Shown here one piece after another: positions 41,268-44,069 of a stretch of DNA of 64,000 nucleotides. The position numbers were made by a program, and so were the translations under genes. Source of the stretch: an uncultured Candidatus Saccharibacteria bacterium. GTDB lineage: Bacteria > Patescibacteriota > Minisyncoccia > UBA6257 > 2-01-FULL-56-20. The DNA is taken from the NCBI GenBank assembly GCA_964374065.1, contig CAYJWW010000002.1, forward strand, positions 4,153 to 68,152. Direction: 5' to 3'. The first letter of the stretch is position 1, and each line of letters starts with the position of its first letter. The notes beneath the pieces are model-generated. The model saw only the letters and a list, made by a program, of their open reading frames with translations. It made no database searches and had not been told where the DNA came from.

Positions 41268-44069
41268 ATGCAGTATGGACCTCTTAAGCGTGCCTTCAAA
41301 AAACGGCGGGCGCATGTCGCCGTCGTAGGCCTTGGGTATGTCGGGATTCCGACCGTTTTGGCGATGGTTCGCGCCGGCATACGCGTCACGGGCATCGACA
41401 TCGATAAAAAACGCGTCGCCGATCTGAACCGAGGCAAAAGCTTCATCGCGGAAATCCCCGATGCGGCGATACGGGAAGCGCAAAAAAAATTCCGCGCGAC
41501 CACGGACTGGAAGGAGCTCAGGAAGGCAAATGCCGTCCTGATCGCGGTCCCTACGCCGCTTACGAGGAATAAAACCCCCGACACCTCCGCGATCGAAACG
41601 GCGGCGAAAAACATTTCAAAATCTCTGCGAAAAGGGACTCTGGTCGTTCTGGAAAGCACGACGTATCCGGGGACGACGGAGGAACTTCTGCGACCGATTC
41701 TCGAGAAATCCGGCCTCAGGGCGGGGAAGGATTTCTATCTCGCGTTCGCGCCGGAGCGCGTGGATCCCGGAAGCAAACATCGTTTCACCGATATTCCGAA
41801 AGTGGTGGGCGGTATTGACGCACGCTCGACCGAGCTTGCGGCGGCGCTCTATGGAAGCTTTTTGAGAGGGGTTCATCGCGTATCTTCGCCGCGCGCCGCC
41901 GAGATGACCAAACTCCTCGAAAACATCTTCCGGCTCGTGAATATCTCGCTCGTGAACGAATTGAAGATGATCGCGGACAAAATGGGAATCGACTTTTGGG
42001 AAGTGATAGAGGCGGCGAAAACCAAACCGTATGGCTTCATGCCGTTCTACCCCGGCCCCGGCGTCGGCGGCCACTGTCTCGAGAAACACCAACGCGTCGT
42101 AATTGAAGAAAAGAGGGAAGTGAATGCATACACGATGGAGGAACTCTATCGAAAGTATGCCGATGCGTGCGTGAAACGTCAGCCGGCATTGGTTGCGGCG
42201 GCACAAGAAAATGTCTCTGACGGGCACACTCTTGCTTTTTCAAAAAATACACATCATTCAGTAAATTCCCCTCTCGCTCCTTTTCGCGTTGCCTCGTTTG
42301 ATTCTAATAAAGGCACAATTTCCTTTGAGCGGGTTGACTTTATCTCGAAACGAGAGAGTAATCACGTCCTTAACATTAAATGCCATTACAACCGAGAGCT
42401 TCGCGTCACGGACGAGCATCCTCTTTATGTGTGGGACGAAGGGACTAAGACACTACGAGTCAAGTGGGCAAAAGACCTCCGGCCGGGTGAGTTTCTGGTA
42501 TATCCTCGGTTACTTCCTCAATCAACTCGAGTTCCCGCGTATGACCTTATCGCAGCACTCCAAAAACAATTCCCATCGCTTATACCACGATATCGAGTCA
42601 AACTTAAGGAAAGGCTCTGGCGCGACTACAAAGAAAATCTCGACCCTTGCTTCGTAGGAGACGATAAAAAACAGGATTACCTGAAAAACAACTCTATTCC
42701 TTTAGAGGAGTACCTTCGCATCGAGAAAAATCTTCCTGTCCCGAGAACAAAAATCCTTCTCGTAAGCGGCCGTGGGTCTTCGTTCGGCACGCTACCTGCT
42801 ATTCTTTCGTTTGATTCCGAATGGGCGAGGCTTTTGGGGTATTACTTAAGCGAGGGGTGTATCACTGAAGACGCGAAAACAATGGGCATAAGATGGACAT
42901 TCCACTCTAAAGAGAAGGAGTACATAGAAGATGTGGAGGCTATACTGCGCAATAAAGGGATCGCTTTTTCTACCTACCAAGATGAACAGTGGCGGAGTTT
43001 TCATATCAAAGTATCTTCAACGCTTCTTGCGCTTTTCTTCCAAGACATTCTTCATACCGGCGTTGACTGCTACACCATGCGCATACCCCAAGAGCTTTTT
43101 ATGAGCGCGCCAGAATTTCGAAAAGAAGTGCTAGCTGGAATTTTACGCGGCGATGGTGGGGTGTGGCGCACTAATCGTCCAAACTCTTATCGCAAAAACG
43201 GCCGTTCTTACACGCATCACAATAACTCTATCGAACTGTGTTATTTCACGTCTTCTCCGATACTCTTCGAACAAGTACAACTCATATTGAATGAGCTGGG
43301 CGTAATCTATAAACTCGAACGGCGACCGGGCCTCATAAAGATGAAAGGGCCCGAAAATGCACGGACCCTCGCTGTGCTTTTTTCGGGAGCAAAACGACAT
43401 CTCGTCGAAGATTATCTTCGACAGATCTCTAAAAGACCTCATTATGATTATGCCCGCACCACTGACGGCTATGTCCTGATTCGGGTAAAAACAATAACAA
43501 GAATCGAGGAAGTTCAAGATGTATATTCGTTAGAAGTGAACCGCCATAGCACATTCCTTACTAATGGAGGTCTTGCGATTCACAACTGCATCCCCTTAGA
43601 CCCTTTTTATCTCTCATGGAAAGCCCGCGAATATAATTTCTTCACCCGCTTCATCGACCTCGCCGGAGAGATCAATGAACTCATGCCGCATCACGTGGTA
43701 ACAAAGGTCATCTGGGCCCTGAATGCCCGCGGCAAAGCCGTGCGAGGCGCAAAAATACTCGTGCTCGGCGTCGCCTACAAGAAAGACATCGATGACCCGC
43801 GCGAATCACCCGCGATCCCCGTGATCTGGGACCTCTTGCGCAAGGGCGCGCGGGTCGTCTACAATGACCCCTTCGTTCGCACTCTGCGCGTGAATGAAAA
43901 AGAGCTTCGCTCTTCTCCCCTCACGAAAGACGCCGTGAAGGACGCCGACTGCGTCATAATCCTCACCGATCACGGCGCCTACGATTACCCGATGCTCGCG
44001 CGCCACGCAAAATGCCTCGTCGATACGCGCGGAGCGATCAAGACGCGCGGACCAAACATCATTTCGTAA
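41268..44069 (+). CDS. UDP-sugar 6-dehydrogenase (WbpA/TviB-like nucleotide-sugar dehydrogenase) carrying a 504-aa intein; the spliced enzyme would be 429 aa
   Basis: N-terminal Rossmann motif [10 protein letters not shown]. The catalytic motif is split as GPGVGGH | intein | CIPLDPFYL, which rejoins to [9 protein letters not shown]. C-terminal UDP-binding domain is present. Confidence 0.85.
   Translation: [933 protein letters not shown]
42075..43586 (+). mobile_element. intein with a LAGLIDADG homing-endonuclease domain, inserted at the catalytic Cys codon of the dehydrogenase
   Basis: Starts with Cys (CLEKH...) and ends with His-Asn followed by a +1 Cys. Block B TDEHPL; two LAGLIDADG motifs ([22 protein letters not shown]). 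GC is markedly lower than in the exteins. Confidence 0.8.

Follow-up and report, generated by a model that had tools for sequence, protein, structure and literature searches.

A class-1 LAGLIDADG intein at the catalytic cysteine of a probable WbpA-like sugar dehydrogenase

Introduction

A nucleotide-sugar dehydrogenase whose active-site motif is interrupted raises the question of what the interrupting segment is, how it came to be there and whether the gene can still give rise to an enzyme. Such a gene is found in the window analyzed here, which denotes the whole stretch of 64 kb presented above. A first-pass annotation had described it as an ORF of 933 codons in which the motif GGHCIPxDP of a nucleotide-sugar dehydrogenase is split by an intein of 504 residues. 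Both the coordinates and the domain content of the ORF agree with this description, and the limits of the intein proved exact to the base (Table 1). We hold with considerable confidence that the locus encodes the precursor of a nucleotide-sugar 6-dehydrogenase, most likely a WbpA-like one, belonging to a surface-glycan gene cluster and invaded by a mobile class-1 intein just before its catalytic cysteine.

Table 1. Features of the dehydrogenase locus (positions in the window; aa, residues of the precursor unless stated otherwise)
Feature	Position	Strand	Description
Wzx/MOP-type flippase	39773..41227	+	Directly upstream; NCBIfam Wzx and MOP flippase matches
Dehydrogenase ORF	41268..44069	+	933 aa; uninterrupted frame
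N-extein	41268..42074	+	aa 1-269; NAD-binding domain and most of central domain; ends GPGVGGH
Intein, class 1, with embedded LAGLIDADG homing-endonuclease domain	42075..43586	+	aa 270-773, 504 aa
Cys1 (block A nucleophile)	42075..42077	+	aa 270
~35-aa insertion, N-terminal splicing region	42174..42281	+	Intein residues 34-69; gap columns in alignment A1
Block B TDEHPL	42408..42425	+	Intein residues 112-117; TxxH = T112, H115
LAGLIDADG motif 1 (LLGYYLSEG)	42825..42860	+	Intein residues 251-262
LAGLIDADG motif 2 (LAGILRGDG)	43131..43160	+	Intein residues 353-362
Blocks F and G (VYSLEV...GGLAIHN)	43521..43586	+	Terminal His503-Asn504
C-extein	43587..44069	+	aa 774-933 and stop codon; end of central domain, UDP-binding domain
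Cys774	43587..43589	+	First C-extein residue
Gfo/Idh/MocA oxidoreductase, WbpB-like by position	44012..44872	+	Pfam GFO_IDH_MocA N- and C-terminal domains
Left-handed beta-helix (hexapeptide) acetyltransferase, WbpD-like by position	44904..45320	+	Pfam Hexapep
DegT/DnrJ/EryC1 sugar aminotransferase, WbpE-like by position	45373..46500	+	Pfam DegT_DnrJ_EryC1 1.5e-121
GT4 glycosyltransferase	46497..47600	+	NCBIfam GT4 matches

The host gene and its insertion point

The ORF corresponds to a dehydrogenase of the UDP-glucose/GDP-mannose family split by the intein. Pfam UDPG_MGDP_dh_N (1.6e-43) and a central-domain match fall in the N-extein, and UDPG_MGDP_dh_C (1.2e-22) in the C-extein; the NAD-binding, central and UDP-binding domains that characterize the family are all present together with the GGxC catalytic cysteine. 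Removal of the intein in silico yields a protein of 429 residues scoring 436.5 bits on the general dehydrogenase model TIGR03026. The first-pass annotation depended on the two extein halves forming a single contiguous enzyme, and this is what the alignments give: the halves align unbroken with intein-free relatives and with the solved homologs 4r16, 3g79 and 3ojl (Cap5O), without any gap across GVGGHC(I/L)PxDP. In the alignment to the solved homologs the insertion falls between His269 and the cysteine of this motif, exactly at the catalytic cysteine as had been proposed. The end of the N-extein and the start of the C-extein (CIPLDPFYL) had also been read correctly, and excision of the intein restores the GGHC motif. 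The active-site cysteine of the dehydrogenase is matched in Cap5O by the cysteine of its GGHC motif, numbered 269 in the chain of the tagged 3ojl construct; in native numbering this is Cys258, the catalytic nucleophile of that enzyme. Cys774 is at once the +1 splicing nucleophile and the active-site cysteine of the enzyme. The exteins themselves show no signs of decay, and their identity to intact homologs, taken along the whole length, is 74-75%.

Base composition sets the insert apart from its host gene, as had already been noticed. The GC content of the intein is 0.460, compared to 0.572 and 0.569 in the N- and C-exteins, and its GC3 of 0.45 compares to 0.68 and 0.71, respectively. Segments of 1512 nt as GC-low as the intein make up 2.7% across the 64-kb window and are all located either at the intein or at a second island around 50.5-53.7 kb. 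A sharp GC drop of this kind, in a sequence that probably originates from a MAG contig, could be taken as the mark of a chimera produced by metagenome assembly. We rejected this extremely improbable explanation on the canonical nature of the junctions: the insert is exactly in frame, its first cysteine directly follows GGH and its terminal His-Asn directly precedes the catalytic cysteine, and dozens of other, independent contigs show this architecture too, which a chance join would not give. A group I intron and a free-standing homing endonuclease gene were rejected as well, the frame being continuous and devoid of stops.

Anatomy and predicted structure of the intein

The intein begins with CLEKH and ends with GGLAIHN, followed by the C-extein cysteine; these termini, block B and the two LAGLIDADG motifs had been called beforehand and could all be located. 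Cys1, the TxxH of block B, the terminal His-Asn and the +1 Cys together define a class-1 intein. The first residue is a cysteine in all relatives with an intact N-junction (14/14). In the alignment of the intein with its relatives (alignment A1), H115 is invariant and T112 is conserved in at least 90% of sequences; toward the C-terminus V483, S485, E487, H503 and N504 are invariant. The block F aspartate usual in many inteins is replaced here by a serine (VYSLEV) and, because this holds across the whole intein family, the replacement is probably tolerated. Within the endonuclease domain, the invariant residues of alignment A1 are G255, Y256, Y257, L258, E260, G261 and C262 in motif 1, where E260 is presumed to be the metal-binding acidic residue, and G355, G359, D360 and G361 in motif 2, where the other catalytic acidic residue is presumably D360. 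In the alignment to PI-PkoII, motif 2 pairs with its equivalent, the second motif.

Profile searches, proposed along with the first-pass annotation, place Pfam Intein_splicing (PF14890; 49.5 bits for a cut-off of 35.8, E 5e-13) and LAGLIDADG_3 (PF14528; 43.5 bits for a cut-off of 22.5, in two stretches of which the best covers residues 251-310) above their cut-offs, and the profile evidence as a whole goes far beyond chance. TIGR01445, which models the intein N-terminal region, reaches 27.5 bits (cut-off 24.5) and TIGR01443, which models the C-terminal region, remains slightly under its cut-off (14.6 versus 15.6 bits). The AF2 model of the intein has a pLDDT of 88.6 and a pTM of 0.89, with the endonuclease domain above 90. 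Its top Foldseek matches are PI-PkoII (2cw7), the TliVMA intein, PI-PfuI (1dq3) and PI-SceI (1vde). Predicted HINT and endonuclease folds are indicated by matches of the model to full inteins and the mini-inteins 4e2u, 5o9i and 7oec for the former, and to I-Tsp061I, the I-DmoI-derived E-DreI, I-AniI and the I-OnuI family for the latter. The solved inteins, among them TliVMA/PhoVMA (7qsu, 7qss, 7qst), share with the present one the combination of HINT and two-motif LAGLIDADG domains, with E-values from 6e-25 (PI-PkoII) to 3e-10, and for PI-PkoII sequence similarity extends across the endonuclease core as well. They differ by their low identity to it (11-16%), their other target sites and their hosts, which are DNA polymerase, ribonucleotide reductase and V-ATPase instead of a sugar dehydrogenase.

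One segment is peculiar to this copy. The insertion of ~35 residues in the N-terminal splicing region is missing or far shorter in the relatives (alignment A1) and is predicted to be disordered, with a mean pLDDT of 46-58 over the 10-residue blocks spanning residues 31-70. It could slow or impair splicing. Taken with the seemingly decayed state of the closest relative, described below, and with a portion of the genome examined that amounts to 64 kb, this unique insertion lends something to the view that the intein is splicing-dead and the gene effectively a pseudogene, the glycan pathway being then either broken or served by a dehydrogenase encoded elsewhere in the genome. We judge this very unlikely: the frame of 933 codons is unbroken, Cys1, T112, H115, H503, N504 and Cys+1 are all present, the undecayed exteins match intact homologs over their full length and no second dehydrogenase copy was found within the 64-kb window.

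Distribution of the intein family

An exhaustive HMM scan with the intein returned 347 clusters at E<=1e-30, and the catalytic cysteine of GGH-type or GGS-type sugar dehydrogenases is the insertion site in ~47 of 62 full-length top matches. Clustered at 50% identity, the dehydrogenase-site inteins fall into ~50 groups, spread over archaea as well as bacteria. Wherever junctions are readable, in GGH-type as in GGS/CFPKD-type enzymes, the insertion lies at the catalytic cysteine; the arrangement GG(H/K)|C...HN|C, vertical bars marking the junctions, is found in 14 out of 14 relatives with both junctions as well as in L001 and L002 and in metagenome loci. Same-site relatives are encountered in the bacterial Anaerolineales, Omnitrophota, Eisenbacteria, Gemmataceae and Elusimicrobia and in the archaeal Nanoarchaeota and Woesearchaeota. 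Metagenomic relatives (P0002-P0024, P0149-P0269, L001, L002, L054-L060) are interrupted at this very position, GG[HKS]|C...HN|C, and have the blocks RGDG, VYSxE and HN in common with the present intein. They depart from it in sequence (27-42% intein identity) and in length (423-499 residues versus 504), and their exteins are 27-61% identical to those of the window, whereas intein-free relatives reach 74-75%.

The closest intein relative is P0001 on L073, with 51% identity, and the next ones do not exceed 42%. P0001 lacks its N-extein and has a stop codon in its C-extein; it appears decayed, and decay therefore does occur in this intein lineage. The best match in a genome-contig scan was an Elusimicrobia MAG (37%), nothing above 39% identity was found in a metagenome scan, and a word-index protein search with the intein profile contributed no more than four further proteins, all of another host family. 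The inteins closest to the present one after P0001 (41-42%) sit in exteins just 38-39% identical to those of the window, whereas the nearest exteins are without intein. We had initially read intein and extein divergence as uncorrelated. This reading was dropped after a moderate correlation was obtained over 41 representatives (Spearman 0.49), for which the distant GGS/CFPKD group is responsible; our claim is limited to the closest inteins and the closest exteins not occurring together.

The first-pass annotation had given inteins at the nucleophile of this enzyme family as known in archaea and rare in bacteria. Among archaea, the 'udp' intein allele has been listed in seven Halobacteria and six other Euryarchaeota (Soucy et al. 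2014, PMC4071816). Rarity in bacteria was overstated, given the five bacterial groups named above and the two bacteria that Soucy et al. (2014) already list, Dictyoglomus thermophilum and a bacterium of the Fervidibacteria. The 'udp' allele (InBase 'Mja UDP GD', Methanocaldococcus jannaschii) resides in the same UDP-glucose/GDP-mannose dehydrogenase host family and shares with the present intein its full size, its LAGLIDADG endonuclease and a distribution across the boundary between archaea and bacteria; the differences are a Patescibacteria-like host and a WbpA-like enzyme. Since all readable relatives sit at the catalytic cysteine, the published 'udp' members probably occupy the same site and are probably homologous. 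The intein family is not new, being already known at the dehydrogenase site in archaea and some bacteria. In the literature collection searched, no work on inteins in CPR/Patescibacteria was found.

Intein-free relatives and the empty site

The best extein matches, at 74-75% identity, come from MAGs of Paceibacterota and Jorgensenbacteria and lack the intein. All 120 closest extein homologs listed (55-75% identity, 358-448 residues) are without intein, and those named among them belong to Paceibacterota, Jorgensenbacteria, Colwellbacteria, Portnoybacteria and Minisyncoccia. Judged by such homolog names and by synteny, the genome of the window is probably a patescibacterial one, similar to Paceibacteria. 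Intein-free alleles of related genomes, suggested earlier as a check, could be matched directly: the empty site reconstructed from the window is identical to those of L012, L014 and L016 at 29-30 of 30 residues and at 77-82% of the DNA. That the insert is low in GC and in GC3, and that the closest extein relatives all lack it, suggests that it was acquired horizontally and fairly recently, from a donor of lower GC.

A different history is conceivable, in which splicing is intact and the endonuclease inactive, the intein having become an immobile passenger, vertically inherited and at a late stage of the homing cycle. The isolation of this copy, whose best relative is both distant and seemingly decayed, and its unique predicted disordered insertion would fit such a history. 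We nevertheless regard it as unlikely: both LAGLIDADG motifs, with the acidic residues E260 and D360, are kept unchanged by all members of the family, confidence in the modelled endonuclease domain is high and a GC3 of 0.45 next to ~0.70 in the exteins indicates little amelioration and hence a recent arrival.

Gene context and substrate

The dehydrogenase gene is framed by genes of glycan synthesis. The flippase is 52% identical to the one preceding the dehydrogenase in L014 and is syntenic with the flippase found ahead of intein-free homologs, and the glycosyltransferase is 51% identical to one downstream of the intein-free dehydrogenase in L012. The 3' end of the dehydrogenase gene is shared with the oxidoreductase gene, whose product has NCBIfam matches at family level only; the acetyltransferase scores 87 bits on TIGR03570 (NeuD/PglB/VioB), under the cut-off. 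For the acetyltransferase and glycosyltransferase genes, the start codons were checked individually. In Pseudomonas aeruginosa, WbpA, WbpB, WbpE and WbpD convert UDP-GlcNAc to UDP-GlcNAc(3NAc)A. The gene order here matches this pathway, with dehydrogenase, Gfo/Idh/MocA oxidoreductase, hexapeptide acetyltransferase and DegT aminotransferase on one strand; the WbpA of P. aeruginosa is not known to carry an intein. A WbpI-type 2-epimerase was looked for in the scanned parts of the window and not found, and equivalog-level models support none of the four WbpA/B/D/E-like enzymes.

The designation 'WbpA/TviB-type' originally given to the enzyme stands at the level of the general model TIGR03026 and fails at the level of TviB, since the spliced protein obtains 231.6 bits on the equivalog NF011729 for a cut-off of 592 and should not be filed as TviB. 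The WecC/UDP-ManNAc dehydrogenase equivalogs NF040825 and NF008286 were not reached either (298.1 versus 750 and 271.4 versus 459 bits). JGI gives close homologs the name UDP-N-acetyl-D-glucosamine dehydrogenase and, from these names and the families of the downstream genes, the enzyme is most likely a WbpA-like UDP-GlcNAc 6-dehydrogenase.

In intein-free relatives, a set of thioredoxin, glutaredoxin and DsbA genes lies beside the flippase gene; this set was not seen beside the dehydrogenase locus of the window. Disulfide-trapped and stress-responsive inteins have been described. With cysteines as nucleophiles at both junctions, the +1 residue being also the catalytic thiol of the enzyme, the intein could be pictured as a conditional switch, for instance a redox-sensitive one, co-opted by the host to gate surface-glycan synthesis, and the redox genes of the relatives, although not seen at this locus, would go in the same direction. 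This seems very improbable to us: nothing in the sequence demands a switch, no close relative has the intein, a distribution more in keeping with a selfish element than with a conserved regulator, and the intact endonuclease domain points to mobility. Similarly speculative, and with very little probability in our eyes, is an extension in which the intein would exceed the role of a selfish passenger: as a redox- or stress-gated switch it would set the timing of acidic diacetamido-sugar surface glycan synthesis in this ultra-small CPR bacterium, and/or it would stem from a recent transfer across domains, between DPANN archaea and CPR bacteria living together, by homing at a universally conserved active-site sequence.

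Proposed mechanism

For the mobile intein that we favor, we infer splicing competence and endonuclease activity, as well as the substrate of the host enzyme and the direction of transfer. After translation, Cys270 (Cys1 of the intein) would undergo an N-S acyl shift and the resulting thioester would be attacked by Cys774, the future nucleophile of the enzyme. Cyclization of Asn773 would then release the 504-residue intein, and an S-N shift would restore the peptide bond, leaving a 429-residue enzyme with an intact active-site motif. As long as it is unspliced, the precursor should have no activity, since the GGH loop and its nucleophile lie 504 residues apart within the central dimerisation domain, and dependence of the glycan pathway on splicing is a sound inference. 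The excised two-motif LAGLIDADG endonuclease would in turn cut intein-free alleles at the conserved DNA encoding GGHCIPxDP, and repair of the cut allele would copy the intein in. The presence of related inteins at one and the same position in several dehydrogenase subfamilies, bacterial as well as archaeal, would be accounted for by how strongly this site is conserved.

Significance

What is new here is modest and consists of a copy without relative above 51% identity, all of whose 120 listed closest extein homologs are intein-free; what is known of inteins and of the dehydrogenase family is otherwise unchanged by it. It provides a clean and fully intact case in which the catalytic cysteine of an enzyme doubles as the +1 splicing nucleophile of an intein. 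It also illustrates that inteins at the dehydrogenase active site move among several enzyme subfamilies and through both prokaryotic domains. Protein engineering might draw on it for a new homing endonuclease or splicing domain, and it might be used to trace gene flow in groundwater-type communities.

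Intein anatomy and predicted activities

The dehydrogenase gene of the window is a single uninterrupted open reading frame on the plus strand, encoding 933 aa (feature coordinates are collected in the table). On translation, the N-extein tail GPGVGGH occupies residues 263–269 and is followed by the intein at residues 270–773, which starts with CLEKH, ends with GGLAIHN and gives way to the extein sequence CIPLDPFYL. The first-pass annotation had placed a 504-aa insert at exactly this position, and the anatomy it described (Cys1, TDEHPL, two LAGLIDADG motifs, a terminal His-Asn and a +1 Cys) is borne out by the translation and by A1, in which the window intein is aligned to 14 relatives and numbered from Cys1. 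Invariant in A1 are H115 of TDEHPL in block B, the core GYYL-EGC of LAGLIDADG motif 1 including E260, G359-D360-G361 of motif 2, V483, S485 and E487 of block F, and His503-Asn504; Cys1, T112 and S259 are conserved at 90% or above. All members of the intein family in A1 carry Ser where many inteins have the block F aspartate. Set beside this conservation, a splicing-dead pseudogene appears very improbable.

The conserved intein blocks were recovered by HMM search as well: Pfam Intein_splicing (49.5 bits, cut-off 35.8), Pfam LAGLIDADG_3 in two stretches (43.5 bits, cut-off 22.5) and TIGR01445 (27.5 bits, cut-off 24.5) score above their cut-offs, while TIGR01443 lies slightly under (14.6 bits, cut-off 15.6). 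Other NCBIfam matches of the intein are intein-bearing archaeal proteins, and the model for the intein-containing tetraether lipid synthase Tes is also matched. The AlphaFold2 model computed from A1 has a mean pLDDT of 88.6 and a pTM of 0.89, and its only poorly defined blocks span residues 31–70. An insertion of about 35 aa between blocks A and B, predicted to be disordered, falls in this low-confidence stretch; it is peculiar to the window copy and absent in relatives. The best Foldseek matches in the PDB are PI-PkoII (6e-25), which is also the best solved relative by sequence, the TliVMA intein (3e-19) and PI-PfuI (1e-17), followed by the PhoVMA intein and PI-SceI, and thereafter by free-standing LAGLIDADG enzymes and mini-inteins. 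Judged from its sequence, the insert combines an intein splicing domain and a homing endonuclease domain, and both splicing and cleavage activity are predicted; that the endonuclease is already inactive seems unlikely.

As the annotation had also claimed, intein GC (0.460) is lower than that of the N-extein (0.572) and C-extein (0.569), and the difference widens at third codon positions (0.45 versus 0.68 and 0.71). Across the 64-kb sequence, 1512-nt windows have a mean GC of 0.566 (sd 0.036); only 2.7% of them are as low as the intein, and these are confined to the intein or to a second island at about 50.5–53.7 kb. With an insert exactly in frame and canonical junctions, an assembly chimera is exceedingly improbable.

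The host dehydrogenase and its empty site

All three domains of the UDP-glucose/GDP-mannose dehydrogenase family are found by Pfam, on both sides of the intein. Without the intein, the 429-aa product reaches 436.5 bits with TIGR03026 (cut-off 189.8) and misses the TviB equivalog cut-off (231.6 versus 592) as well as those of two UDP-ManNAc dehydrogenase equivalogs. The enzyme had been described as WbpA/TviB-type: the TviB part of this label is not upheld, and the WbpA part comes from genomic context and the names given to close homologs. The spliced product aligns end to end with the solved structures 4r16, 3g79 and Cap5O (3ojl), and free of gaps through the motif pgpGVGGHC(i/l)p.DP, so that the extein halves are contiguous with intein-less homologs. 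In this alignment, the Cys following the intein pairs with residue 269 of the chain in the tagged Cap5O construct, which corresponds to native Cys258, the catalytic nucleophile.

The spliced sequence has 55–75% identity to its 120 best homologs, which are 358–448 aa long, hence intein-free. Those with named sources belong to Candidatus Paceibacterota, Jorgensenbacteria, Colwellbacteria, Portnoybacteria and Minisyncoccia, and several bear the JGI name UDP-N-acetyl-D-glucosamine dehydrogenase. These sources make a Patescibacteria (CPR) genome the most likely origin of the window. DNA of intein-free loci was available from L012 (Jorgensenbacteria-type), L014 and L016 (Paceibacterota MAG). The empty site was rebuilt by joining the 45 nt on either side of the intein; it includes TATGGCTTCATGCCGTTCTACCCCGGCCCCGGCGTCGGCGGCCAC immediately before and TGCATCCCCTTAGACCCTTTTTATCTCTCATGGAAAGCCCGCGAA immediately after the insertion point. 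Over these 90 nt, DNA identity with the three loci is 77–82%, and at most one of the 30 encoded residues differs. Intein-free alleles in related genomes thus match the rebuilt site.

Genomic context

Three genes separate the dehydrogenase from the downstream GT4 gene.

Features of the dehydrogenase locus and of the second low-GC island (window coordinates)
Feature	Coordinates	Location	Remarks
Flippase	39773-41227	Upstream of dehydrogenase	52% identity to the flippase preceding the dehydrogenase in L014
Dehydrogenase precursor	41268-44069		933 aa, + strand
Intein	42075-43586	Within dehydrogenase	504 aa
Insertion of the window copy	42174-42281	Between intein blocks A and B	~35 aa
Gfo/Idh/MocA oxidoreductase	44012-44872	Between dehydrogenase and GT4
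Hexapeptide acetyltransferase	44904-45320	Between dehydrogenase and GT4
DegT aminotransferase	45373-46500	Between dehydrogenase and GT4
GT4 gene	46497-47600	Downstream	~50% identity to the glycosyltransferase following the dehydrogenase in L012 and L016
Second low-GC island	50500-53700	Within glycan cluster	GC 0.39-0.44
ORF without family match	51677-52252	Second low-GC island	GC3 0.33
Transketolase-like, N-terminal TPP-binding half	52200-52763	Second low-GC island	One of split pair
Transketolase-like, pyrimidine-binding half	52768-53265	Second low-GC island	Other of split pair

These genes have the same enzyme-family composition as the WbpA/B/D/E route to UDP-2,3-diacetamido-glucuronic acid. 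Assignment of the cluster to this pathway is plausible but inferred, since equivalog-level models support none of the enzymes. The glycan cluster extends to about 60 kb and also contains more glycosyltransferases, a methyltransferase, aminotransferases, a PglF/CapD-like dehydratase and a Wzy_C protein; no second dehydrogenase of the UDP-glucose/GDP-mannose family is present in the 64-kb window. Read from its first ATG, the Gfo/Idh/MocA frame shares 58 nt with the 3' end of the dehydrogenase gene, which suggests either translational coupling or a true start codon further on.

In the intein-free relatives, a conserved set of thioredoxin reductase, glutaredoxin, SPW protein and DsbA-like genes flanks the flippase/dehydrogenase locus (L012 469–2593, L014 579–1752, L016 1–1603). 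The upstream neighbours in the window differ and comprise a sigma-70 family factor, ORFs without family match and a D-Ala-D-Ala ligase. The second low-GC island, whose GC lies below the 0.57 averaged over the window, may be a further module gained by horizontal transfer.

Relatives and distribution

Queried with the intein, a word-indexed search returned 24 protein clusters; every complete one is a nucleotide-sugar dehydrogenase. The closest, the partial P0001, is 51% identical; the others reach at most 41%. P0001 is carried by a 1.5-kb contig (L073 1–1561, GC 0.41), its N-extein is not recognisable and its C-extein has an in-frame stop (CIPDDPC, stop, LSGKAKE...); its sequence suggests either a copy in decay or a poor assembly. 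All 14 relatives with both junctions read GG(H/K)↓C...HN↓C(I/F), where arrows mark the intein boundaries, and the same junctions occur in an Elusimicrobia MAG (L001), a Woesearchaeota MAG (L002) and several metagenome contigs. Among the named sources are Nanoarchaeota, Anaerolineales, Omnitrophota, Eisenbacteria and Gemmataceae. The annotation had called inteins at this site rare in bacteria; with metagenomes counted, they are not particularly so.

When 1.84 billion representatives were scanned exhaustively with a profile, 347 clusters were obtained at E<=1e-30, one of which (P0151) is the window protein itself. About 47 of the 62 top full-intein-length matches sit at the catalytic Cys of a sugar dehydrogenase, in two types of host site, GGH↓C...HN↓CIPxDP and the UDP-glucose dehydrogenase type GGS↓C...HN↓CFPKD; the rest lie in other hosts. 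Inteins of the same family were seen in other hosts of about 1100–1300 aa (P0184, P0189–P0192, P0200, P0208, P0235; loci L003 and L061), with junctions ...YGN↓C...HN↓C(I/V)GVPTV and ...HN↓CMGAQPIA.

Two IMG/VR 'viral' contigs of 62.5 and 340 kb encode dehydrogenases with a related intein at GGH↓C...HN↓C (L018 3014–5785, locus GC 0.32, and L019 3068–5932, locus GC 0.57, respectively). Either viruses carry and spread the allele, or cellular sequence, for instance of DPANN or CPR, was misclassified as viral. Intein-split genes of MAGs appear to be often mis-called: among P0012 and P0017–P0020, several public gene calls start within the intein, the named ones as 'UDP binding domain-containing protein' or 'hypothetical protein', and P0015 ends as a truncated intein joined to C-extein residues.

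Origin, mechanism and evolutionary meaning

Across 41 representatives compared with the window, extein identity is 28–58% and intein identity 27–41%; the two correlate (Spearman 0.49, n=41), a trend driven by the distant GGS group. The nearest inteins (41–42%) reside in exteins just 38–39% identical, the nearest exteins (74–75%) are without intein, and third-position GC is unameliorated. Together these comparisons indicate probable horizontal acquisition of the intein rather than long vertical descent in the lineage of the window.

Following established intein chemistry, Cys270 would undergo an N-S acyl shift, trans-thioesterification onto Cys774 would ensue, Asn773 would cyclise, and an S-N shift would yield the 429-aa enzyme, its GGHCIPLDP motif restored. 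The unspliced precursor should be inactive because a 504-residue domain parts the nucleophile from its loop, within the central (dimerisation) domain. Co-option of the intein as a conditional switch is very improbable. The most likely target of the predicted endonuclease is the conserved DNA coding for the active-site motif. Such a target would account for the presence of one intein family at the same site in several dehydrogenase subfamilies.

UDP-glucose dehydrogenase is listed among intein hosts in reviews (PMC2874743), and a 'udp' allele was defined in UDP-glucose 6-dehydrogenase (Soucy et al. 2014; PMC4071816). Its members are seven halobacterial inteins, six from other Euryarchaeota including M. 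jannaschii, and two from bacteria, Dictyoglomus thermophilum and a Fervidibacteria bacterium, a diversity spanning domain boundaries according to these authors (PMC4071816). Every readable relative found here lies at the catalytic Cys, and the published members would be expected to share this site. A literature search turned up no paper on CPR or Patescibacteria inteins. The window intein is probably a new and divergent addition to a known intein allele, which had not previously been noted in its lineage; it is a neat example that will not surprise specialists.
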